Source of the DNA: a virus
Taxonomy: Duplodnaviria > Heunggongvirae > Uroviricota > Caudoviricetes
Reading direction: 5' to 3' (one strand)
IMG/VR virus record: IMGVR_UViG_2671180676_000009
DNA: 34,976 nucleotides
The position numbers and the translations under genes are program-made. Positions within the stretch are counted from its first letter, which is position 1, and every line of letters starts with the position of its first letter. The notes beneath the pieces are model-generated. The model worked only from the letters and a program-made list of their open reading frames with translations, did no database searches and had not been told where the DNA came from. Shown here one piece after another: positions 3,928 through 34,976 of this stretch.

Positions 3928-4098
3928 TCAGGCTACAGCTTTAAGATTTGTCTGGAATACTTTGTTGCAATGAGGGCAGATCAAAAGGGCACCTTTTTGT
4001 ACTCTTGAAAAACTGTGTTCTGACTCTTGGGTGCAGTTTGGGCAGGAACATTTAACGAGATAATTACGGCGTGATTTTGAGTTTTTACGTTCTGACAT
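3928..4098 (-). CDS. Small C4 zinc-ribbon protein (56 aa), antisense to the late operon
   Basis: ATG at 4098 (minus) with AGGAAA 5 nt upstream; MSERKNSKSRRNYLVKCSCPNC-x18-CPHC (Cx2C...Cx2C) with basic N-terminus. Confidence 0.45.
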   Translation of the reverse strand: MSERKNSKSRRNYLVKCSCPNCTQESEHSFSRVQKGALLICPHCNKVFQTNLKAVA

Positions 4099-4317
4099 AG
4101 GCTTTTCCTGTATAAATGGCCGTATACAGTACACTAAATATGAAAACATTTCTCGTATTATTATTTTATATATGACTTTCTTTCAAAATAATTACCCACA
4201 TTTTTAATGTGTATGTTTTTTTAGCGCCGTTGAGAACAACGTGTGCTGTCAAAACTACCCCGTAGACTCCGATCTTTTCAAACATATTGCACCATCCGTG
4301 TACATCGGGGTGAGGAT

Positions 4318-4533
4318 ATGAAATCAATGGATAAGTTAACAACAGGTGTTGCCTATGGCACATCGGCGGGTAATGCTGGTTTCTGGGCATTGCAGTTACT
4401 CGATAAAGTAACTCCGTCACAGTGGGCTGCAATCGGTGTGCTGGGTAGCCTGGTTTTTGGCCTGCTGACGTATCTGACAAATCTTTATTTCAAGATTAAA
4501 GAAGACAGGCGTAAGGCTGCGAGAGGAGAGTAA
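4318..4533 (+). CDS. essQ: Holin, phage 21 S-type pinholin (71 aa) with dual-start motif MKSM
   Basis: [28 protein letters not shown]...[35 protein letters not shown]; RBS GGGGTGAGG before ATG; two TMDs. Confidence 0.9.
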
Positions 4534-4537
4534 TCCA

Positions 4538-4845
4538 ATGACTCAAGACTATGAACTGGTTGTGAAAGGAGTCCGTAATTTTGAGAATAAAGTTACGGTA
4601 ACTGTAGCCTTACAGGACAAAGAACGCTTTGACGGTGAAATTTTTGACCTGGATGTCGCCATGGACCGTGTTGAAGGAGCTGCGCTGGAGTTTTATGAGG
4701 CAGCAGCCAGAAGGAGCGTCCGGCAAGTCTTCCTGGAAGTAGCAGAAAAATTGTCAGAAAAAGTTGAGTCTTATCTGCAGCATCAGTACTCCTTTAAGAT
4801 TGAAAATCCTGCCAATAAGCACGAGCGTCCTCATCATAAATATCT

Positions 4846-5873: not shown

Positions 5874-6234
5874 GGTAATATTAAATCGGAACATTTACAT
5901 CGCGGAATGTAAAATTTAAATAAAAAGGACTCTTCCATGAGCCAAAATTCCTGAAATCTTAAGGGTAAGATAAAAGGTCTTAATCAGAATGACACGTTTT
6001 ATTAATAAATAAAGCTATTCTTTCATTGCTGTGTTTTTCTTTACAAAAGTAATCCTTGCTATGGGTGGTTAATCATGCGTTAATGGTGTTCTGGTTTGTT
6101 ACAAATTTATCTGAAGCAGTCATTGTTATAATTTTATTATTTGTACCTCTTGAGATTTCCTTGTTGGTTTTTCTCTCTGATATTTTTTTCGGACCATTCT
6201 GCCCAAGGGCTAATTTCTTCAAAAGGTAATAATT

Positions 6235-7294: not shown

Positions 7295-7445
7295 TGTATT
7301 CAATAATAAAATTTATCCATAAACCTCGTTTTTACGGGGTTTTGTTATATTTGAATGGTTCCGAATATCTAAATCACAATTGTTGATGGTTTTTATTAAA
7401 CCAATGCAGTCCGGCTCAGGAGTGAGAGAAGCCGGACGTTATGGT

Positions 7446-23847: not shown

Positions 23848-26800
23848 ATGGGTAAAGGCAGCAGTAAGGGGCATACTCCGCGCGAAGCGAAGGACAACCT
23901 GAAGTCCACGCAGCTGCTGAGTGTGATCGATGCCATCAGCGAAGGGCCGGTTGAAGGTCCGGTGGATGGATTAAAAAGCGTGCTGCTGAACAGTACGCCA
24001 GTGCTGGACAGTGAGGGGAATACCAATATCTCCGGCGTCACGGTGGTGTTCCGGGCCGGTGAGCAGGAGCAGACACCGCCGGAGGGATTTGAATCCTCCG
24101 GCTCCGAGACGGTGCTGGGTACGGAAGTGAAATACGACACGCCGATCACCCGGACCATCACGTCGGCAAACATTGACCGACTGCGCTTTACCTTCGGTGT
24201 GCAGGCACTGGTGGAAACCACCTCAAAGGGGGACCGGAATCCGTCGGAAGTCCGCCTGCTGGTTCAGATACAGCGTAATGGTGGCTGGGTGACGGAAAAA
24301 GACATCACCATTAAAGGCAAAACCACCTCGCAGTATCTGGCCTCGGTGGTGGTGGATAACCTGCCGCCGCGCCCGTTTAATATCCGGATGCGCAGGATGA
24401 CGCCGGACAGCACCACAGACCAGTTGCAGAACAAAACGCTCTGGTCGTCATACACCGAAATCATCGATGTGAAACAGTGCTACCCGAACACGGCACTGGT
24501 CGGCGTACAGGTGGACTCGGAGCAGTTCGGTAGCCAGCAGGTGAGTCGTAATTATCATCTTCGCGGGCGCATTCTGCAGGTGCCGTCGAACTATAACCCG
24601 CAGACGCGACAATACAGCGGTATCTGGGACGGAACGTTAAAACCAGCATATAGCAACAACATGGCCTGGTGTCTGTGGAATATGCTGACCCATCCGCGCT
24701 ACGGCATGGGGAAACGTCTTGGTGCGGCGGATGTGGATAAATGGGCGCTGTATGTCATCGGCCAGTACTGCGACCAGTCGGTGCCGGACGGCTTTGGCGG
24801 CACGGAGCCGCGCATTACCTGTAATGCGTACCTGACCACACAGCGTAAGGCGTGGGATGTGCTCAGTGATTTCTGCTCGGCGATGCGCTGTATGCCGGTA
24901 TGGAACGGGCAGACGCTGACGTTCGTGCAGGACCGACCGTCGGATAAGGTGTGGACCTATAACCGCAGTAATGTGGTGATGCCGGATGATGGCGCGCCGT
25001 TCCGCTACAGCTTCAGCGCCCTGAAGGACCGCCATAATGCCGTTGAGGTGAACTGGATTGACCCGAACAACGGCTGGGAGACGGCGACAGAGCTTGTTGA
25101 AGATACGCAGGCCATTGCCTGTTACGGTCGTAATGTTATGAAGATGGATGCCTTTGGCTGTACCAGCCGGGGGCAGGCACACCGCGCCGGGCTGTGGCTG
25201 ATTAAAACGGAACTGCTGGAAACGCAGACCGTGGATTTCAGCGTGGGCGCAGAAGGACTTCGCCATGTGCCGGGCGATGTTATTGAAATCTGCGATGATG
25301 ACTATGCCGGTATCAGCACCGGCGGTCGCGTGCTGGCGGTGAACAGCCAGACCCGGACTCTGACGCTCGACCGTGAAATCACGCTGCCATCCTCCGGCAC
25401 CACGCTGATAAGCCTGGTTGACGGGCAGGGGAATCCGGTGAGCGTGGAGGTCCAGTCCGTCACTGACGGCGTGAAGGTGAAAGTGAGCCGTGTTCCTGAC
25501 GGCGTTGCCGAATACAGCGTGTGGGGACTGAAGCTGCCGACGCTGCGCCAGCGCCTGTTCCGCTGCGTGAGTATCCGTGAGAACGACGACGGCACGTATG
25601 CCATCACCGCCGTGCAGCATGTACCTGAAAAAGAGGCCATCGTGGATAACGGGGCGCACTTTGACGGCGACCAGAGCGGCACGGTGAATGGTGTCACGCC
25701 GCCAGCGGTGCAGCACCTGACCGCCGAAGTCACCGCAGACAGCGGGGAATATCAGGTGCTGGCGCGCTGGGACACGCCGAAGGTGGTGAAGGGCGTGAGC
25801 TTCCTGCTCCGTCTGACCGTAACAGCGGATGACGGCAGTGAGCGGCTGGTCAGCACGGCCCGGACGACGGAAACCACATACCGCTTCACGCAGCTGGCGC
25901 TGGGGAACTACAGGCTGACAGTCCGGGCGGTAAATGCGTGGGGGCAGCAGGGCGATCCGGCGTCGGTATCGTTCCGGATTGCCGCACCGGCAGCGCCGTC
26001 ACAGATTGAGCTGACGCCGGGCTATTTTCAGATAACCGCCACGCCGCATCTTGCGGTTTATGACCCGACGGTACAGTTTGAGTTCTGGTTCTCGGAAAAG
26101 CGGATTACCGATATCAGGCAGGTTGAAACCACAGCACGCTATCTTGGCACGGCGCTGTACTGGATAGCCGCCAGTATCAATATCAAACCGGGCCATGATT
26201 ATTACTTTTATATCCGCAGTGTGAACACCGTTGGCAAATCGGCATTCGTGGAGGCTGTTGGTCAGCCGAGTGATGATGCATCCGGTTATCTGGATTTTTT
26301 CAAAGGCGAGATAGGGAAAACCCATCTGGCTCAGGAGCTGTGGACGCAGATTGATAACGGTCAGCTTGCGCCTGACCTGGCTGAAATCAGGACGTCCATT
26401 ACGGATGTCAGCAATGAAATCACGCAGACCGTCAATAAGAAACTGGAAGACCAGAGTGCGGCAATTCAGCAGATACAGAAGGTTCAGGTTGATACAAATA
26501 ATAACCTGAACAGCATGTGGGCTGTGAAGCTGCAGCAGATGCAGGACGGACGCCTTTATATCGCGGGTATTGGTGCCGGTATTGAGAACACCCCTGACGG
26601 CATGCAGAGTCAGGTGCTGCTGGCGGCGGACAGGATTGCGATGGTTAATCCTGCGAATGGCAACACAAAACCGATGTTTGTTGGTCAGGGCGATCAGATA
26701 TTCATGAACGACGTGTTCCTGAAACGCCTGACGGCCCCCACCATTACCAGCGGTGGAAATCCACCGGCATTTTCCCTGACTCCGGACGGAAAGCTGACCG

Positions 26801-27345
26801 CTAAAAATGCGGATATCAGTGGCAGTGTGAATGCGAACGCCGGGACGCTCAACAATGTCACGGTAAATGAAAACTGTACGATTAAGGGCATGCTGGAGGC
26901 GACTCAGGTCAGAGGTGACTTCGTTAAAGCTGTATCCAAATCATTTCCGAAACAGGCTGGTACGTGGGGTAACACGGAAACACCAAACGGGACGGTTACA
27001 GTCACCATAAGCGATGATCATAACTTTGACCGTCAAATCATTATTCCGCCCATTATCTTTAACGGAATAGCGTATAGCGATCCGGGAAGTGGTAATAACC
27101 CGGGAGGTACAAGATACACGGGTTATGGTTTTGAAGTTCGCAAAAACGGTGTATTAATCGCATCCAGAGAAACTAAAGGGGCTATTCCCGGTAGCTACAG
27201 TGCGGTTATTGATATGCCGAGTGGCAGGGGAAGCGTCACTCTGGAGTTTAAGGTTTTCCATAAAGGCAATCAGTGGGCAGGTAATATCACCGACTGTACG
27301 GTGATTGTGACCAAAAAAGCGGCTTCAGGCATCAGTATTCGTTGA
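23848..27345 (+). CDS. J: Tail tip / host-specificity protein J (1165 aa)
   Basis: [41 protein letters not shown]...; lambda-like over most of its length but with a different, longer C-terminal segment. Confidence 0.9.
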
Positions 27346-27367
27346 AATATTTATAACCCCAATAAAT

Positions 27368-27392
27368 GGCGTCAGGAATGACGCCTTTTTTA
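27368..27392 (+). terminator. Rho-independent terminator after J
   Basis: GGCGTCA-GGAA-TGACGCC followed by TTTTTT. Confidence 0.7.
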
Positions 27393-27415
27393 TTGCAGAA
27401 AAGCGAGAGGTAATT

Positions 27416-28015
27416 ATGCGTAAAGTTTGTGCAGCCATTTTGTCCGCAGCCATTTGTCTGGCCGTATCCGGTGCGCCTGCATGGGCGTCTGAACATCAGT
27501 CCACGCTGAGCGCGGGGTATCTTCATGCCCGGACCAACGTTCCCGGCAGTGATGATCTGAACGGGATTAACGTGAAATACCGTTATGAGTTTACGGATAC
27601 GCTGGGGATGGTGACGTCATTCAGCTATGCAGGAGACAAGAATCGCCAGCTTACCCGTTACAGCGATACCCGCTGGCATGAAGATTCCGTGCGTAACCGC
27701 TGGTTCAGCGTGATGGCGGGGCCGTCTGTGCGCGTGAATGAATGGTTCAGTGCGTATGCGATGGCGGGCGTGGCTTACAGCCGTGTGTCGACTTTTTCCG
27801 GGGATTATCTCCGCGTAACTGACAACAAGGGGAAAACGCACGACGTGCTGACCGGAAGTGATGACGGTCGCCACAGCAACACGTCTCTGGCGTGGGGAGC
27901 TGGCGTGCAGTTTAACCCGACCGAATCCGTGGTTATTGATGTCGCTTATGAAGGTTCCGGCAGTGGTGACTGGCGCACTGACGGTTTCATCGTGGGTGTC
28001 GGTTATAAATTCTGA
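27416..28015 (+). CDS. lom: Lom outer-membrane protein (Ail/Lom family beta-barrel, 199 aa)
   Basis: Signal peptide [24 protein letters not shown]; C-terminal ...GVGYKF; AGAGG RBS. Confidence 0.9.
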
Positions 28016-28042
28016 TTAGCCAGGTAACACAGTGTTATGACA

Positions 28043-28068
28043 GCCCGCCGGTTCAGGCGGGCTTTTTT
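28043..28068 (+). terminator. Rho-independent terminator after lom
   Basis: GCCCGCC-GGTTCA-GGCGGGC followed by TTTTTT. Confidence 0.7.
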
Positions 28069-28079
28069 GTGGGGGGAAT

Positions 28080-31000
28080 ATGGCAGTACGGATTTCAGGT
28101 GTACTGAAAGATGGCGCAGGTAAGCCGATACAAAACTGCACCATTCAGCTAAAGGCCAGGCGCAACAGCACCACGGTGGTGGTGAACACAGTGGCCTCAG
28201 AAAACCCGGATGAAGCCGGGCGTTACACAATGGACGTCGAGTATGGTCAGTACAGCGTCAGTCTGTTGGTGGAAGGATTCCCGCCGTCACATGCCGGGAC
28301 CATCACCGTGTATGAAGATTCCCGACCCGGTACGCTGAATGATTTTCTCGGTGCCATGACGGAGGATGATGCCCGTCCGGAGGCTCTGCGCCGTTTTGAA
28401 CTGATGGTGGAAGAGGTGGCGCGTAACGCGTCCGCGGTGGCACAGAACACGGCAGCCGCGAAGAAGTCAGCCAGTGATGCCGGCACATCTGCCAGTGAGG
28501 CGGCAACCCATGCGACTGATGCTGCAGGCTCAGCGCGTGCAGCCAGCACGTCAGCCGGACAGGCCGCGACGTCGGCTCAGGAGGCGTCTTCCAGCGCAGG
28601 AACGGCATCAACAAAGGCCACTGAAGCATCAAAAAGTGCTGCCGCTGCAGAGTCCTCAAAAAGCGCGGCGGCCACCAGTGCCGGTGCCGCGAAAACGTCA
28701 GAAACGAATGCTGCAGCGTCACAAAAATCAGCAGCCACTTCTGCATCCACTGCGACGACGAAAGCGTCAGAAGCCGCCACTTCAGCCCGGGATGCGGCGG
28801 CCTCCAAAGAGGCGGCAAAATCATCAGAAACGAACGCCTCCACAAGCGCCAGCAGTGCAGCCTCCTCGGCAACGGCGGCAGGAAATTCCGTGAAGGCGGC
28901 AAAAACGTCCGAGACGAATGCTAAGTCTTCTGAAACGGCAGCGGAACAGAGCGCCTCAGCTGCGGCAGACTCTGAGACAACAGCTGCATCATCGGCCCGT
29001 GAGGCGTCCATTAAGGCAGAGGAGGCAGCAGTCAGTGCCACCGCCGCCGGAAAATCGGCAGAAAGCGCCGCATCATCCGCTTCAACAGCCACAACGAAGG
29101 CTGGCGAAGCCACTGAACAGGCCAGCGCAGCAGCGAGGTCTGCTTCCGCAGCGAAGACATCCGAAACGAACGCGAAAGCGTCGGAAACCAGCGCAGAATC
29201 CTCAAAAACGGCTGCCGCATCGTCCGCCAGTTCGGCGGCGTCATCGGCATCATCGGCGTCTGCTTCAAAAGATGAGGCGACCAGACAGGCGTCAGCAGCG
29301 AGGGGCAGCGCCACGACGGCATCCACGAAGGCGACAGAGGCTGCTGGCAGTGCGGCAGCGGCAGCACAGAGCAAAACGGGCAGAGGATATTGCATCCGCC
29401 GTGGCGCTTGAGGATGCGAGCACGACGAAAAAGGGGATAGTACAGCTCAGTAGTGCGACTAACAGCACTTCCGAGTCACTGGCGGCAACACCAAAAGCCG
29501 TTAAGGCCGCGTATGACCTGGCTAACGGGAAATACACCGCACAGGATGCAACGACAGCACAGAAAGGGATAATCCAGCTAAGCAGCGCGACCAACAGCAC
29601 GTCTGAAACGCTTGCCGCGACACCAAAGGCAGTAAAAGCAGAAACGTCTGCAGAAAGATCAGAACGGTGCGGATATCCCTGGCAAAGATACCTTTACGAA
29701 AAATATTGGTGCCTGCCGTGCCTTCGGTGGGTCAGTAAGCACAACAACAGGAAACTGGACGACTGCACAGTTTATCGAGTGGCTGGATTCTCAGGGAGCA
29801 TTTAACCATCCATACTGGATGTGCAAGGGTTCCTGGTCTTATGGCAATAATAAAATCATTACTGATACTGACTGCGGTAATATTCATCTCGCCGGAGCTG
29901 TCATTGAAGTAATGGGGATAAAGTCAGCGATGACGATCCGCATTACCACACCGACCACCTCCACTGGTGGTGGAACAACTAACGCCCAGTTTACCTATAT
30001 TAATCACGGAACAGATTATTCACCTGGCTGGCGAAGGGACTATAACTCCAGAAATAAGCCAACGGCATCAGAGATCGGGGCGTTACCGTCAGGTGGAACA
30101 GCAGTATCATCAGTTAATCTGGCTTCAAAAGGTCGGGTAACCGCGCTGACAGACAATACGCAGGGGGCAGCAGGTCTTGAGTTATACGAGGTGTATAACA
30201 ACGGATATCCAACAGCGTATGGAAATATCATTCACCTGAAAGGGATGACAGCCGTTGGCGAAGGTGAGTTACTCATCGGCTGGAGTGGTACAAGCGGTGC
30301 TCATGCTCCGGCATTTATTCGTTCACGACGGGATACGACCGACGCAAACTGGTCGCCGTGGGCGCAGCTTTACACCTCGGCTCATCCTCCTGCAGAGTTT
30401 TATCCAGTCGGTGCACCAATCCCGTGGCCATCAGATACCGTTCCGTCTGGCTATGCCCTGATGCAGGGGCAGACTTTTGACAAATCTGCATACCCGAAAC
30501 TTGCAGTTGCTTATCCGTCAGGCGTGATCCCTGATATGCGTGGCTGGATGATTAAGGGCAAGCCCGCCAGTGGTCGGGCCGTATTATCTCAGGAACAGGA
30601 CGGCATTAAATCGCACACCCACAGCGCCAGCGCATCCAGTACGGATTTGGGGACGAAAACCACATCGTCGTTTGATTACGGAACCAAATCCACGAATAAC
30701 ACCGGGGCGCATACCCATAGTATTAGCGGGACCGCAAATAGTGCCGGTGCGCACCAACACAAGAGTTCCGGTGCATTTGGTGGCACGAACACGAGCATTT
30801 TCCCTAATGGTTATACCGCGATTTCAAATCTAAGCGCGGGGATTATGAGCACAACAAGCGGTAGTGGCCAGACTCGTAATGCAGGGAAGACATCATCAGA
30901 TGGTGCTCATACCCACTCGCTGTCCGGCACTGCTGCAAGCGCAGGCGCACATGCACATACTGTCGGTATTGGTGCTCATACGCACTCCGTTGCGATTGGT

Positions 31001-31093
31001 TCACATGGACACACCATCACCGTTAACGCTGCTGGTAACGCGGAAAACACCGTCAAAAACATCGCATTTAACTATATTGTGAGGCTTGCATAA
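28080..31093 (+). pseudogene. stf: Side tail fibre gene stf split across three reading frames (junctions near 29373-29376 and 29654-29656)
   Basis: Frame 0 (28080-29411) has the Stf N-terminus and A/S/T-rich repeat; frame 1 has AKRAEDIASAVALEDASTTKKGIVQLSSATNSTSE...ATPKAVKA; frame 2 continues to the His-rich Stf C-terminus ...[14 protein letters not shown]. Confidence 0.75.
28430..29370 (+). repeat. Low-complexity Ala/Ser/Thr-rich repetitive segment of Stf with recurring KTSETNA-type units
   Basis: About 310 codons dominated by A, S, T, K, E with repeated AAKTSETNA / AKSSETNA motifs; yields long spurious ORFs in other frames and on the opposite strand. Confidence 0.7.
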
Positions 31094-31668
31094 TGGCATT
31101 CAGAATGAGTGAACAACCACGGACCATAAAAATTTATAATCTGCTGGCCGGAACTAATGAATTTATTGGTGAAGGTGATGCATATATTCCGCCTCATACA
31201 GGTCTGCCAGCAAACAGTACCGATATTGCACCGCCAGATATTCCGGCTGGCTTCGTGGCTGTTTTCAACAGTGATGAGTCATCGTGGCATCTCGTTGAAG
31301 ATCATCGGGGTAAAACTGTTTATGACGTGGCTTCCGGCGACGCGTTATTTATTTCTGAACTCGGTCCGTTACCGGAAAATGTTACCTGGTTATCGCCGGA
31401 AGGGGAGTTTCAGAAGTGGAACGGCACAGCCTGGGTGAAGGATACGGAAGCAGAAAAACTGTTCCGGATCCGGGAGGCGGAAGAAACAAAAAACAACCTG
31501 ATGCAGGTAGCCAGTGAGCATATTGCGCCGCTTCAGGATGCTGCAGATCTGGAAATTGCAACGGAGGAAGAAATCTCGTTGCTGGAAGCATGGAAAAAGT
31601 ATCGGGTATTGCTGAACCGTGTTGATACGTCAACTGCACAGGATATTGAATGGCCAGCACTGCCGTAG
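31093..31668 (+). CDS. tfa: Tail fibre assembly chaperone Tfa (191 aa)
   Basis: ATG overlaps stf stop (TAATG); [48 protein letters not shown]... as Tfa proteins. Confidence 0.9.
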
Positions 31669-31765
31669 GGTAAAACATATAAATTCTATAATTAGATGTA
31701 TCTTTCCATTTACGGCAAGGAAGGGGGCTTGGAAGACGTAAAGCATCTCACACCGAGATTATTTT

Positions 31766-32356
31766 TTATATGTCAGGTGTCTGAAGTTTTGCTTTGGCTC
31801 TTAAAATGGTTTGCCGCGAGGTTTTGAATTCCCGGGCAATGGCACTTATACTTACACCTGACTTAATTCGTTCGAATACCGCCTGTTTCTGTTCTTCATT
31901 TAACACAGGTGGTCGACCAAAACGTTTCCCTGCGCCGCGGGCTCTTACTATCCCGGAATGAGTGCGTTCAAGTAAAAGGTCTCGTTCAAATTCAGCGACT
32001 GCTGAAATTACTTGCATCATCATTTTTCCTGTTGGACTGGTCAGGTCAATGCCCCCCAATGCTAAGCAATGCACTCTGATACCTGTTTCGGTCAGTTGTT
32101 CCACTGTTTTCCTGATATCCATTGCATTACAACCAAGGCGATCCAGTTTTGTCACAATCAATTGATCACCACATTTCAGGCGAGCAAGCAACCGGTTAAA
32201 ACCAGGACGCTCACTGGTTGCTGCTGAGCCGCTAATGTGTTCTTCGATTATTTGCTGAGGTTTGATTTTAAAACCTGCACTTTCGATTTCCCGGCGTTGA
32301 TTTTCGGTGGTCTGATCCAGCGTTGATATCCGACAGTAAGCAAAAATTTGAGACAT
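31766..32356 (-). CDS. pin: Serine recombinase, Pin/Gin/Hin-family DNA invertase (196 aa)
   Basis: [20 protein letters not shown]... with catalytic Ser in CRIST, resolvase core and C-terminal HTH; convergent with tfa. Confidence 0.9.
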
Positions 32357-32672
32357 AGTGAGACTCTATACGAAATTGGTGTTCATATCATAATGCATCT
32401 CAGAAAATAATTATGATTATTTTTGTGCATATTTGTATGTACACGTTCGAAAATAAACGAATGCGTATGCAACCCCGTAATTTTGGTGAGACCCAAAATC
32501 GATTTTGTGAAAAATGGCTTTAACTCGGTTTGTTTTTCGAGTTCCGGGCGGACTCAAGGAAGAAGAATAGTGTTGCGTGTTATTTTAACCAGATTTCAAG
32601 TTGTTTGGTCGTGGAAAAGTGGAGCAAAATGTTGTTAAAGTGGAAAAATGATAAAAAAGTAAGTTTATTATA

Positions 32673-32906
32673 TTACATTTTACCATTTAAATTTTGGTTG
32701 TCTTTAAGAACTGATATCGCTGTTTGTAATAATTCTTTGTTATCCAGCCATGATTTTTTCTTTATGTTTCCTTCAATGTAATCAAGCAATGTTCTGGTAT
32801 TGATAGGTCTTCCCTGTTTTGCTACTTCCACTACAGCATCCCCTAGGATAATTCTTACTTCAGGAAGCTGCGCAGGGAACCACTTTAGGGTGTCTTTTGA
32901 TTTCAT
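32673..32906 (-). CDS. ydfK: YdfK/YnaE-family small protein (77 aa)
   Basis: MKSKDTLKWFPAQLPEVRIILGDAVVEVAKQGRPINTRTLLDYIEGNIKKKSWLD...; AAGGAA 7 nt upstream of ATG at 32906. Confidence 0.8.
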   Translation of the reverse strand: MKSKDTLKWFPAQLPEVRIILGDAVVEVAKQGRPINTRTLLDYIEGNIKKKSWLDNKELLQTAISVLKDNQNLNGKM

Positions 32907-33692
32907 GAAGATATTCCTTAAAATATTATTGATTTTCATTGCGATATTGTATGTCTGATTCAGGATATGTTGACTTATACATCGGTTTTGTCTGGGTTAT
33001 TGGATATGCCAATCCCTAATTTTATTAGGGCATGACTAAAAATGCTGAATATGATAAGGAGAGATGTGATTATCAGTATGCTGTTCATATAGCCTCGAAT
33101 TAGTAATGTGTTATATATGATATAGTTGACAATTTTTATCTTGGGTGTTCTTAAAGTTCGTAGATAAACATTGTCGTTTCAGGTATACAGGAATGCTAAC
33201 AGGTGGCAGCAAAAATCAGGCGGTTTATGGCGCAAGCTGAAGCGGCAACTGCAAACTATCTTATGCAGAGACTCTACACGGATTGGGTTTAAAAGTATAC
33301 ATAGATAACAGTTTTTATCTGAAAAAGAAAAATATCAAGGTGATATAGCCTATATGCCTTTGATGCGGAGGAATGAATGTGATGGGAGTGATGTATCTGA
33401 ATAGTTGAAAAACCGCAGACACGCCTTATGCAAGAACGTGCTGCGATTGGCTGGTAAATTTTTCGATAGTGTGAGTATTGAATGATTTCTAGCCGTTCTT
33501 GATTTTACGCATAAATCCATGAAAAAACTACTTATCTGTTGGGGAGTTTTTTTGGGGCATATATGGGACAGAAATAGGCCCCAGATAGACACTGAGATCG
33601 AACTTAGGATGCTTTTTAAAAAAATGCAACTATCTGAAAAAACCTAGAAAACGCCAAGGAAACCACAGGATGGGAAAAAACACCTGTGAATT

Positions 33693-34976
33693 ATGGATTT
33701 CCAGTTATATTCGCTCGGCGCAGCGTTAGTGTTTCATGAAATATTTTTTCCTGAATCATCAACGGCAATGGCGTTAATTCTGGCAATGGGAACCTACGGT
33801 GCAGGTTATGTGGCGCGTATTGTCGGAGCATTTATTTTCGGCAAAATGGGCGACAGAATAGGGCGTAAAAAAGTGCTCTTTATTACCATCACCATGATGG
33901 GGATCTGTACCACCTTAATTGGTGTGTTACCGACCTATGCACAGATTGGTGTTTTTGCACCCATCTTGCTGGTGACGTTGCGTATTATTCAGGGGTTGGG
34001 TGCAGGTGCGGAAATTTCCGGTGCCGGTACGATGCTGGCGGAATATGCGCCAAAAGGTAAGCGCGGAATTATCTCCTCATTTGTGGCTATGGGAACTAAC
34101 TGCGGAACCTTGAGCGCAACGGCAATCTGGGCCTTTATGTTCTTCATTCTCAGTAAAGAGGAACTGCTGGCGTGGGGATGGCGTATACCGTTCCTGGCGA
34201 GTGTTGTCGTGATGGTCTTTGCTATCTGGTTGCGTATGAATCTGAAAGAAAGCCCGGTCTTTGAGAAGGTTAACGACAGTAACCAACCGACAGCAAAACC
34301 TGCACCTGCTGGTAGCATGTTCCAGAGCAAATCCTTCTGGCTGGCAACAGGGCTGCGTTTTGGTCAGGCGGGTAACTCCGGGTTAATTCAGACTTTCCTT
34401 GCAGGCTATTTAGTGCAGACGTTATTGTTTAACAAAGCAATTCCAACAGATGCATTGATGATCAGTTCGATTCTCGGCTTTATGACCATTCCGTTCCTTG
34501 GTTGGTTATCCGATAAAATTGGTCGCCGGATCCCGTATATTATTATGAATACCTCCGCGATTGTGCTGGCATGGCCAATGCTTTCTATCATTGTAGATAA
34601 AAGCTATGCCCCGAGCACCATTATGGTTGCACTGATTGTGATTCATAACTGTGCGGTGCTGGGATTATTTGCTCTGGAAAACATTACCATGGCAGAAATG
34701 TTCGGCTGTAAAAACCGCTTTACCCGGATGGCTATTTCTAAAGAAATTGGTGGTCTTATCGCTTCCGGTTTTGGTCCTATCCTGGCGGGTATTTTCTGCA
34801 CCATGACGGAATCCTGGTATCCGATCGCCATTATGATCATGGCATATTCAGTGATTGGTTTAATCTCTGCGCTGAAAATGCCAGAGGTGAAAGACCGTGA
34901 TTTAAGTGCGCTGGAAGACGCTGCGGAAGATCAACCGCGTGTTGTAAGAGCTGCGCAACCTTCCAGAAGTCTGTAA
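33693..34976 (+). CDS. ydfJ: MFS metabolite:H+ symporter-family transporter, apparently N-terminally truncated (427 aa)
   Basis: ORF begins inside the conserved TM1 motif (MDFQLYSLGAALVFHEIFFPE); in-frame stop 6 nt upstream; 12-TM MFS features downstream (GDRIGRKK, RIIQGLGAGAE). Confidence 0.7.
   Translation: MDFQLYSLGAALVFHEIFFPESSTAMALILAMGTYGAGYVARIVGAFIFGKMGDRIGRKKVLFITITMMGICTTLIGVLPTYAQIGVFAPILLVTLRIIQGLGAGAEISGAGTMLAEYAPKGKRGIISSFVAMGTNCGTLSATAIWAFMFFILSKEELLAWGWRIPFLASVVVMVFAIWLRMNLKESPVFEKVNDSNQPTAKPAPAGSMFQSKSFWLATGLRFGQAGNSGLIQTFLAGYLVQTLLFNKAIPTDALMISSILGFMTIPFLGWLSDKIGRRIPYIIMNTSAIVLAWPMLSIIVDKSYAPSTIMVALIVIHNCAVLGLFALENITMAEMFGCKNRFTRMAISKEIGGLIASGFGPILAGIFCTMTESWYPIAIMIMAYSVIGLISALKMPEVKDRDLSALEDAAEDQPRVVRAAQPSRSL

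Follow-up and report, generated by a model that had tools for sequence, protein, structure and literature searches.

The prophage gene pinQ is very probably the resolvase gene of a decayed Tn3-family mini-transposon

In the window, a 34,976-nucleotide stretch of caudoviricete DNA (IMG/VR record IMGVR_UViG_2671180676_000009), a small serine recombinase gene lies between a tail-fibre assembly gene and a cold-shock gene. The tfa gene (31093-31668, plus strand; Pfam Caudo_TAP; tfaQ in E. coli annotation) has its stop at 31668 and converges with the recombinase open reading frame (31766-32356, minus strand, 196 aa; Pfam Resolvase and HTH_7) across a stop-to-stop gap of 97 bp, which confirms the placement beside stf-tfa given in a preliminary description of this DNA. 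On the other side, a ydfK-type gene (32673-32939, minus strand; ydfK in E. coli annotation) follows. The recombinase is identical to PinQ of E. coli K-12 at 196 of 196 residues and to PinR at 194 of 196, and the DNA flanking the gene is identical to the K-12 pinQ and pinR loci both upstream and downstream. The gene order tfa, pin, ydfK/ynaE, ynfT/ynaM is common to the Qin (pinQ) and Rac (pinR) prophages, and Qin has its insertion site in ydfJ, as does the window prophage, which carries a full tail region (J, lom, stf) in contrast to the truncated K-12 Qin. The stf gene of the window is frameshifted. The supposed orphan invertase is thus the known E. coli prophage gene pinQ; its transposon origin, described below, appears undescribed in the literature searched. 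The plaque-forming lambdoid phages 2H10, Tritos and mEp460 have the same layout, so it did not arise through decay of this one prophage.

In the Din family of phage invertases, the crossover site comprises 26 bp in the order half-site, AAACC, 2-bp core, GGTTT, half-site, and an inverted pair of such sites flanks the invertible segment. No such segment is found in cis, as had been noticed before. The window holds a single stf-tfa and no second tfa or tail-fibre C-terminus in inverted orientation, the 97-bp gap between tfa and pin has no coding content, and no inverted repeats above chance occur in positions 27000-34976. A search of the same interval for gix/hix-like sites reveals no AAACCNNGGTTT-type or pix-type crossover site and no flanking pair, and no AAACC-NN-GGTTT site is present near the pin locus. 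Across the whole window, AAACCNNGGTTT has four one-mismatch matches, at 7321, 10578, 13909 and 26668, all away from the pin locus and with no pair flanking a segment. The pix half-site has one match at three mismatches and none better, which is below chance expectation. No second res-like site or half-site cluster is found elsewhere in the window, where half-site counts are at chance level, or weakly above it for CACMAAAAT.

The closest relatives of PinQ are encoded on transposons. PinQ is 74-84% identical to Tn3-family TnpR proteins (83% to that of L027, 77% to that of Hafnia) and 36-38% identical to Gin, PinE and other phage invertases (see also PMC12529663). One homologue (P0014, 83-84% identical) lies 160 bp from a divergent Tn3-family transposase gene in seven of eight places, and another (P0116, 77% identical) does so in eight of eight. 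The transposase is full length (994 aa) in seven places for the former and six for the latter, with the N-terminal part only in the other two, and scores 1193 bits against NF033527, for which the cut-off is 500. On the pPCP plasmid of Y. pestis Java 9, ars cargo is followed by tnpR, a 159-bp gap and tnpA, so that the nearest relatives are tnpR genes beside tnpA in 15 of 16 places for the two homologues and again on pPCP. Gene order, res architecture and conserved 2-3' interface residues suggest that these relatives act as resolvases. The elements in L027-L034 and the pPCP ars transposon presumably resemble ISEc63 and Tn2502. A scan of genome contigs with the single protein returns only near-identical copies and a few relatives at 57-72%; a homologue in Erwinia phage LS-2018a is 60% identical, its neighbours being co-directional genes that lack annotation, and no clear repeats are seen there.

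Comparison with these transposons places pin inside an 834-bp element (31723-32556), arranged as terminal repeat, tnpR, res, spacer and terminal repeat, from which a transposase (TnpA) gene is absent. One terminal repeat begins 8 bp past the end of pin and the other some 160 bp ahead of its start codon. The right repeat (31723-31757, plus strand, GGGGGCTTGGAAGACGTAAAGCATCTCACACCGAG) is degenerate, matching at 27 of 38 positions, with a 3-bp deletion, the 38-bp repeat GGGGTCCGCTTGGAAAACGGAAAATATCCCACGCTAAG that directly follows tnpR at the end of the Tn3-family elements in L027-L034. Homology downstream of pin spans 35 bp against the 38-bp repeat and stops exactly at its GGGG tip. The left repeat (32518-32556, minus strand, TGAGTCCGCCCGGAACTCGAAAAACAAACCGAGTTAAAG), also degenerate, aligns with the repeat GGGGTCAGTTTGGAATTCGGAAAATAAACCATGTTAAG of an IncF plasmid element and with the transposon repeat at about 26-29 of 38 positions, and homology to the plasmid element begins at its end. 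Both relics, of the 38-bp GGGG...TAAG type, are only about 70% identical to intact repeats. Just outside them lie identical copies of AGGAA (31718-31722 and 32557-32561), which resemble the 5-bp target duplications that Tn3-family transposition produces and that the intact relative L032 displays as TAATA on both flanks; because the left repeat has TGAG in place of the expected GGGG, the flanking duplication could also be read as 7 bp (CAAGGAA). The tfa and ydfK-type genes then represent the phage DNA to the left and right of the insertion. Neither the 5426 E. coli genomes nor the phage collection contains a match to a synthetic tfa-AGGAA-ydfK junction, used as query for an empty site in which tfa is joined to ydfK; the insertion is accordingly deduced from the repeats, the duplication and the homology boundaries, and not from a before-and-after pair.

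Upstream of pin, 120 bp align over their full length with the intergenic res of the transposons and its three dyads. The subsite III relic (32367-32385, minus strand, TGAACACCAATTTCGTATA) is the best-conserved part, and beside it a -10-like hexamer, TATGAT (32387-32392), is conserved; by analogy with Tn3-family biology, this region may serve as promoter and operator. The subsite II relic (32398-32429, minus strand, TGCACAAAAATAATCATAATTATTTTCTGAGA) aligns with transposon TGTCCGAAAGTCAGCGAAATCACTTTCGGATA but has lost the CG cores of both half-sites. The subsite I relic, the former crossover site (32443-32468, minus strand, ATACGCATTCGTTTATTTTCGAACGT), is unique in the window and aligns with TGACCGAAACCGGTCGGTTTCGTACA; its right half-site TTTCGAAC is retained, while the left half and the centre are altered. 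Spacing within site I is 26 bp here, as against 28 bp in the gamma-delta site I. Half-sites in the transposon relatives are of the type TGTCCGAAA, which matches the gamma-delta res half-site. All three subsites are recognisably homologous, but only about two of the six half-sites keep the TTTCG core and four are degenerate. The res of the window is a relic and is probably no longer proficient in recombination.

The dyads that first drew attention to this region lie beside the crossover relic. They are present at, or within one base of, the positions given for them: TTTTGGTGAGACCCAAAA at 32481-32498, ATTTTGTGAAAAAT at 32502-32515 and, in the 5' part of pin, GGTTTGATTTTAAAACC at 32259-32275, one base from the earlier position; a perfect palindrome, CAAAATCGATTTTG, occupies 32494-32507. 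Perfect dyads with 6-bp arms number seven in 32357-32672 against 1.1 +/- 1.3 in 500 shuffles; these seven counts are nested and stem from three distinct dyads, and such dyads are common throughout the window (4.2 per kb). As a group only, and modestly, they exceed chance. A terminator test of the upstream dyads detects no terminator, and their predicted RNA folding is no better than that of shuffled sequences (z = -0.24). The spacer that holds them, between res and the left repeat (32476-32517; dyads at 32481-32498, 32494-32507 and 32502-32515), is shared with phage 2H10. There both arms of the central palindrome have changed together, so that it is kept (CAAAATCGATTTTG versus AAAAATCGATTTTT), whereas the copy on the IncF plasmid does not conserve the spacer dyads. 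The coding-region dyad GGTTTGATTTTAAAACC is specific to the phage lineage, the transposon homologues reading GGTTTTAACGTCAGACC instead, and a strict-consensus sequence scan finds no Fis site within pin, 32259-32275 included. This dyad is probably incidental, and its proposed role as an enhancer gains no support from such a scan, which Fis binding could nevertheless escape. The suggestion that relic recombination or operator sequences lie upstream of pin is borne out in substance, with the crossover relic located at 32443-32468 and not in the dyads themselves.

Two types of mobile element come closest to this one. The small Tn3-family transposons, with divergent tnpA-res-tnpR (3.8 kb in L027-L034), have the same three-dyad res, the 38-bp repeat past the tnpR stop and 5-bp duplications, but the window element differs from them in lacking tnpA and in its degenerate repeats and four degenerate half-sites. 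An intact version of the transposase-less element, with repeats and res preserved, is present on the IncF plasmid NZ_CP059908.1: the architecture (repeat, spacer, res, tnpR, repeat) and the kind of left repeat and spacer agree with those of the window, but consensus repeats, consensus TGTCCGAAA half-sites and arginine at the R71 position are still found in the plasmid copies. A total of 3773 plasmids have its left repeat and spacer. It adjoins pemIK in the single IncFII-type backbone inspected, and at a second locus pemK lies beside the resolvase gene. The plasmid element is likely the donor type, and its plasmid copies may plausibly serve multimer resolution. On one chromosome, 600 bp that are 100% identical to the transposon stand in place of the prophage sequence, which indicates that the two still recombine. 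This locus, L048, with arginine at position 76 in a phage context, was considered as an ancestral state and rejected, since the identity of its patch to the present-day transposon points to recent gene conversion.

Four lineage-specific changes stand out in the protein itself. Against the catalytic reference set (Y6, R8, S10, D36, R68 and R71), PinQ possesses Y7, R9, S11, E39 and R73, with the equivalent of R71 replaced by Cys76. The corresponding codon, TGT (32129-32131, minus strand), aligns with the active-site Arg71 of gamma-delta and Tn3 resolvase; arginine is found there in all 110 transposon-type homologues, Gin, gamma-delta resolvase and PinE, and cysteine in the phage lineage only. 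PinQ positions 3, 35, 61 and 76 correspond to gamma-delta R2, R32, E56 and R71, and the phage lineage has Q3, Q35, K61 and C76 where 98-100% of the 110 transposon-type homologues have R, R, E and R. At the 2-3' interface (R2, R32, K54, E56), whose residues build the accessory-site synapse, the window protein has Q3, Q35, R59 and K61 compared with R, R, R/K and E in the transposon clade, so that two to three of the four residues are changed; the gamma-delta/Tn3 residues R2, R32 and E56 are conserved in that clade, and PinQ lacks these as well as R71. In Tn3 resolvase, both R71A and R71K abolish recombination (PMC2794168). Cys76 therefore makes direct catalysis by PinQ questionable.

Despite these changes, the reading frame is under relaxed purifying selection. 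Omega is 0.15 against the transposon tnpR and 0.04-0.12 among transposon copies; within the phage lineage it is 0.375 (35 non-synonymous and 26 synonymous changes; neutral expectation 47 and 14), significantly below 1. The pin coding DNA of the window differs from that of phage 2H10 by 0.7% and the adjacent res relic by 12.6%. Cys76, Q35 and K61 are common to lineages 16% apart in protein, which indicates that the frame stayed open long after those changes; truncated or disrupted copies also occur (L021, L022, H265, H266). Of 5426 complete E. coli genomes, 2732 contain the 834-bp element.

Taken together, the evidence makes it very probable that pinQ is the resolvase gene of a decayed 834-bp Tn3-family mini-transposon and never had an invertible tail-fibre segment. 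A single transposition, for which a related transposase presumably acted in trans, would have placed the element between the tfa and ydfK genes of an ancestral lambdoid phage and duplicated AGGAA; inheritance or recombination would later have carried it into Rac and Qin as well as many live phages of the lambdoid group. Comparison with the intact copies shows that the terminal repeats and most TGTCCGAAA-type res half-sites have since decayed, that two to three 2-3' interface residues have changed and that the essential R71 has been replaced by Cys76, with the open reading frame and the promoter-proximal subsite III remaining intact. In cis, the most that PinQ may do is bind the relic sites near its own promoter, in autoregulation; as the prophage offers no partner site, local inversion or deletion would be impossible. 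Any present function would be exerted in trans, where, according to one report, PinQ changes how the P segment of e14 is oriented (PMC12529663). On account of Cys76, PinQ is likely a very slow recombinase at best, and it may act mainly by binding DNA.

The proposal of a host-range switch lost or locked at this locus does not survive these results. It would make pinQ an invertase of the Mu, P1 or e14 (Din) type whose adjacent tail-fibre/tfa cassette was deleted, leaving relic crossover or enhancer sites. The gene does adjoin stf-tfa convergently, much as P1 cin is positioned against its tail-fibre operon, and has dyads upstream. With Gin of Mu, Cin of P1, PinE of e14 and Hin, PinQ shares the small serine recombinase fold, HTH_7 and the tail-fibre neighbourhood, and its best match among solved structures is Gin (106 bits, compared with 79-84 bits for gamma-delta resolvase). 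But Din members are roughly 60-70% identical to one another and functionally interchangeable, and PinQ, at less than 40% to the phage invertases and 77-84% to transposon TnpR, has a different recognition helix (SRQTILRAK, compared with GVSTLYKRF in the Din family) and a transposon ancestry. Unlike Din systems, pinQ has no 26-bp crossover sites, no AAACC-NN-GGTTT motif nearby, no invertible segment and no enhancer recognisable from sequence, the putative enhancer dyad being lineage-specific and without a strict Fis match. Its upstream homology is to a transposon res and not to gix, cix or pix, and live phages with different tail-fibre modules have the identical cassette-less layout. The gene is enclosed so tightly by Tn3-type terminal repeats, with a 5-bp duplication outside them, that no room is left for a tail-fibre cassette. 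A former Din switch is already contradicted by these homology boundaries, and we consider it extremely improbable.

Three further proposals concern what the stranded gene does at present. PinQ may be an active invertase in trans, flipping the 1797-bp P segment of e14 at pix so that StfE2 is produced and T2 adsorption is blocked, with defence retaining the gene; this reported flipping is what links PinQ to the Din family (PMC12529663). According to that peer-reviewed paper of 2025, overproduction of PinQ raises P-segment inversion from 30% to 88%, deletion of pinQ lowers survival after T2 infection, the effect requires stfP, stfE and e14, and T2 induces pinQ (PMC12529663). These phenotypes argue for real recombinase activity despite Cys76. 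In addition, one pix half-site, CTCTCGAAAACC, resembles the family site-I half-site TGACCGAAACCG in the same register. The E56K substitution in Tn3 resolvase is an activating change that confers independence of accessory sites, and K61, its equivalent, together with the lost 2-3' interface residues would fit an enzyme freed from res. Against this stands the cysteine in place of an arginine without which Tn3 resolvase does not recombine DNA and cleaves it about 1000-fold more slowly, as does a recognition helix unlike that of the Din family. The P segment is, moreover, locked in a pinE single mutant (PMC12529663), which indicates that native PinQ alone is insufficient. Finally, the K-12-type P segment with pinE is present at a coverage of at least 80% in 170 of the 5426 genomes (288 records at an identity of at least 99%), whereas the element occurs in about half of them, so the P segment does not account for the upkeep of the gene in free phages or in the majority of hosts. 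We regard inversion in trans as a genuine possibility, held with considerable doubt. More tentatively, and rather unlikely in our judgement, PinQ and PinR could be exapted, catalytically crippled resolvases that act as sequence-specific DNA-binding modulators and do not recombine DNA; they might bias the direction of PinE-catalysed inversion of the P segment, through occupancy of a pix half-site or mixed synapses, or might repress host and prophage promoters. The gene might, alternatively, be a functionless, slowly decaying relic of a dead transposon that hitch-hikes with the lambdoid tail-fibre region, its intact frame reflecting youth and recombinational spread and not selection. Degradation of the terminal repeats, res half-sites, 2-3' interface and catalytic arginine would agree with this, as would the disrupted copies and a phage-lineage omega several-fold above that of transposon copies; but omega is significantly below 1, the shared Cys76, Q35 and K61 imply a frame long open, pin has diverged far less from 2H10 than the res relic beside it, and deletion phenotypes are reported (PMC12529663). 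Such a loss of all function seems unlikely.

For decades pinQ and pinR have been annotated as prophage "DNA invertases", and the literature now presents them as the first recombinase-activated phage-defence system. If pinQ is a stranded Tn3-family resolvase gene, nothing in the window is a broken host-range switch, and the origin changes the reading of the defence work, the controls that this work needs and the annotation of both genes. The points that matter most for that re-reading are the decayed sites, the lost accessory-site interface and the missing catalytic arginine. Should PinQ act as a modulator, the published inversion of e14 by PinQ would be modulation of another invertase and not catalysis by PinQ. 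In conclusion, the locus would illustrate clearly how a phage can gain an accessory gene through transposition of a plasmid-derived mini-transposon.

The rightmost part of the window comprises the tail end of a lambdoid prophage that is integrated within ydfJ, at the Qin site. J (23848-27345), lom (27416-28015), stf (28080-31093), tfa (31093-31668) and the 3' part of ydfJ (33693-34976) lie on the plus strand, while a 196-aa serine recombinase (31766-32356) and ydfK (32673-32939) are encoded on the minus strand. The recombinase gene is convergent with tfa, with 97 bp between both stop codons, and no second tfa or tail-fibre C-terminus follows in inverted orientation as an alternative cassette. 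Screening 27000-34976 for inverted repeats yields no meaningful one, and the search for gix/hix-like sites finds no Din-type crossover site in or near the pin locus; AAACCNNGGTTT is matched with one mismatch at four places, between 7321 and 26679, and no two of these pair around a segment. The orphan recombinase without a segment noticed in the preliminary description is confirmed: the partner site is absent from the prophage window, and nothing is invertible or resolvable in cis. The accompanying suggestion that a host-range switch was lost or locked is unsupported; instead, pinQ is very probably the resolvase gene belonging to a stranded mini-transposon of the Tn3 family. The neighboring stf is itself broken by deletions of 44 bp and 17 bp at ~29374 and ~29640 relative to the intact homologues of locus L001, K-12 stfR and phage 2H10; both shift the frame and split the gene into three ORFs, so the tail fibre of this prophage is inactivated independently of pin. 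Related genomes have ydfJ, which encodes an MFS transporter, annotated as a partial pseudogene without an N-terminus, because the prophage interrupts it; here it shows the position of the right attachment site of a Qin-type prophage far more complete than that of K-12.

The recombinase is identical to K-12 PinQ at 196/196 residues (PinR, 194/196), and the flanking DNA on either side matches the K-12 pinQ and pinR loci without a difference. PinQ shares 36-38% identity with Gin, PinE, phi80 PinL and other phage invertases of the Din type; thousands of proteins encoded on plasmids and chromosomes, in Enterobacterales and beyond, are 77-84% identical to it. Judged from these sequences, PinQ is not a Din-type invertase by descent. 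Genomic contexts were inspected for two homologues at eight places each: at seven of them, P0014 (83-84% identical) is divergent to a Tn3-family transposase gene at a distance of 160 bp, and P0116 (77% identical) is so at all eight. Of these 15 places, 13 have a full-length transposase gene (994 aa, with DUF4158 and DDE_Tnp_Tn3) and two an N-terminal remnant, and the 994-aa protein scores 1193 bits against NF033527 (cut-off 500). On pPCP of Y. pestis Java 9 the order is arsHRBC, tnpR, a 159-bp gap and tnpA. In this arrangement the homologues show the tnpA-res-tnpR core that is classical for Tn3-family transposons, and the transposon ancestry of pinQ, taken alone, can be held with even greater confidence.

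Intact elements extend 46 bp beyond the stop codon of tnpR and have the 38-bp repeat GGGGTCCGCTTGGAAAACGGAAAATATCCCACGCTAAG as their end, past which the flanks vary by locus, one locus showing a 5-bp duplication, TAATA. In the window, a degenerate right terminal repeat (31723-31757) matches at 27 of 38 positions with a 3-bp deletion, and its homology ends exactly at the GGGG tip. The place of tnpA is occupied by a left terminal repeat relic (32518-32556), whose inner TAAAG end points towards res and whose best match is GGGGTCAGTTTGGAATTCGGAAAATAAACCATGTTAAG of the IncF plasmid NZ_CP059908.1. The resulting element (31723-32556) is flanked by an AGGAA target duplication (31718-22 and 32557-61). 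These flanks are common to all phage and prophage copies, and no empty tfa-ydfK site is found in 5426 E. coli genomes and the phage collection, which together point to one old insertion that later spread. The flanking repeat can also be read as 7 bp, CAAGGAA (31716-31722, 32555-32561), because the outermost two bases of the left-repeat relic are CA where CC is expected; this is probably coincidence or a mutation of the repeat tip.

The region upstream of pin (32357-32475) is homologous to the transposon intergenic res, the resolvase site, over its whole length in multiple and pairwise alignments. The transposon consensus consists of three dyads of TGTCCGAAA-type half-sites and a -10 hexamer. 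In the window, the site I relic (32443-32468; consensus TGACCGAAACCG-GT-CGGTTTCGTACA) retains the right half-site with the left half and centre altered, the site II relic (32398-32429; consensus TGTCCGAAA-N14-TTTCGGA) has lost both CG cores, the -10 hexamer (32387-32392) reads TATGAT against TATAAT, and the site III relic (32367-32385; consensus ending in TTTCGTAC) is well preserved. The crossover site adjoining pinQ is degenerate. Relative to phage 2H10, the window has 4/591 nt changed in the pin coding sequence (0.7%) and 15/119 nt in the res relic (12.6%; 5881-6000 of the 2H10 locus); ~11 of the 15 differences fall within the site I and II relics or the short stretch separating them. Of the two relics, that of 2H10 is nearer the transposon consensus, and the divergence could reflect a recombination boundary or directed half-site loss. 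The dyad described in the 5' coding region of pin is present within one base of its stated position. The short dyads described upstream of pin are present too, at 32481-32515, in the spacer that separates res from the left repeat, and occur in 2H10 as well. The palindrome CAAAATCGATTTTG (32494-32507) becomes AAAAATCGATTTTT in 2H10-type copies, both arms changing with symmetry preserved; this single compensatory pair is weak evidence for a putative binding site. The upstream dyads are not conserved in the IncF plasmid copy and exceed the shuffled expectation, but the counts are nested; screening them finds no terminator and no unusual RNA fold.

The same unit, likewise without a transposase (repeat, spacer, res, tnpR, repeat), is found on the IncF plasmid, where its repeats are intact and its res keeps the consensus. 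Sequence resembling the left repeat plus spacer occurs on 3773 plasmids of the plasmid collection, some copies having a resolvase gene and some interrupted by IS1. Among the repeat-plus-spacer loci inspected, L049 (pO26_H19_3) and L031, the left repeat and spacer adjoin pemI and pemK in the single IncFII-type backbone examined, and pemK is adjacent to the resolvase gene at a second plasmid locus; the unit may be a multimer-resolution module of the plasmids. On the E. coli chromosome GCA_910593615.1, a ~600-bp patch (3960-4560 of locus L048) 100% identical to the plasmid transposon tnpR sits in a prophage copy with the usual ynaE-pin-tfa context, and position 76 is Arg. This patch is a recent gene conversion between plasmid transposon and prophage relic, so both forms still recombine.

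Of 5426 complete E. coli genomes, 2732 contain the 834-bp element 31723-32556 (at least 80% coverage), and a single genome can have as many as six copies. The convergent, cassette-less pin gene is also found in the plaque-forming lambdoid phages 2H10, Tritos, mEp460, Kati, HannyBb and Turner, and in Tritos its layout is unchanged beside a different tail-fibre module; the arrangement therefore represents a stable design rather than local decay. PinQ at 99-100% identity on short MAG contigs labelled Draconibacterium, Caldithrix and Alistipes, bins of unrelated phyla, most probably reflects contamination by E. coli or phage DNA, and the same caution is due for the "trematode" matches quoted in PMC12529663.

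Compared with 110 transposon-type homologues (gamma-delta resolvase equivalents in parentheses), the phage lineage is fixed for different residues at a few positions where the transposon clade is 98-100% invariant. PinQ has Q3 for Arg (R2; retained in PinR), Q35 for Arg (R32), K61 for Glu (E56), C76 for Arg (R71; codon TGT at 32129-32131), T109 for Ala (M103), M113 for Thr (V107) and, in the HTH, S180 for Thr (A171) and A187 for Val (V178). The accessory-site synaptosome is assembled through four 2-3' interface residues, among them R2, R32 and E56; loss of the equivalents of these three matches the accessory-site decay. R71 is one of six Tn3 resolvase residues whose mutation abolishes recombination, strand cleavage becoming ~1000-fold slower (PMC2794168); Arg occupies this position in Gin, PinE and the gamma-delta and Tn3 resolvases. 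Cys76, Q35 and K61 recur in a second phage-context lineage (P0009, 84% identical, beside tfa), and the changes are therefore old. Against the nearest transposon tnpR, pinQ has dS 0.61, dN 0.094 and omega 0.15; omega is 0.04-0.12 among transposon copies and 0.375 within the phage lineage (dS 0.22, dN 0.082). The latter differences comprise 35 non-synonymous and 26 synonymous changes against a neutral expectation of ~47 and 14 (chi-square ~13), so the ORF is still constrained, less than a working resolvase.

The current function of pinQ is uncertain. PinQ might autoregulate through putative binding at the retained subsite III and -10 region, as TnpR proteins do, and any biological role would be exerted in trans. 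That PinQ is a trans-acting invertase is conceivable yet doubtful. Cross-reaction is made conceivable by two sequence features: one pix half-site (CTCTCGAAAACC), from the crossover sites of the invertible e14 P segment, resembles the family's site-I half-site in register, and K61 and the lost 2-3' interface resemble changes known to deregulate resolvases. Kirigo et al. report that PinQ overproduction takes the P segment from 30% to 88% inverted, and that P inversion yields StfE2, by which T2 adsorption is blocked (PMC12529663). However, Cys76 occupies an essential catalytic position, deletion of pinE alone locks the P segment by that paper's own statement, and few genomes have a K-12-type P segment (170 at no less than 80% coverage, versus 2732 with the pinQ element). 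A preprint claims that antioxidant genes are repressed by PinR, which would agree with a DNA-binding role. A non-catalytic modulator is rather unlikely, and a functionless pinQ slightly more so. These three estimates overlap and are not meant to form a complete partition.

In conclusion, the pinQ gene, its name and its orphan status are already known. Its transposon origin, which is based on the repeats, duplication, res relic and plasmid donor form, is absent from the literature searched, as are Cys76 and the interface substitutions. The finding is a modest but useful reinterpretation of pinQ, rather than a new type of system.
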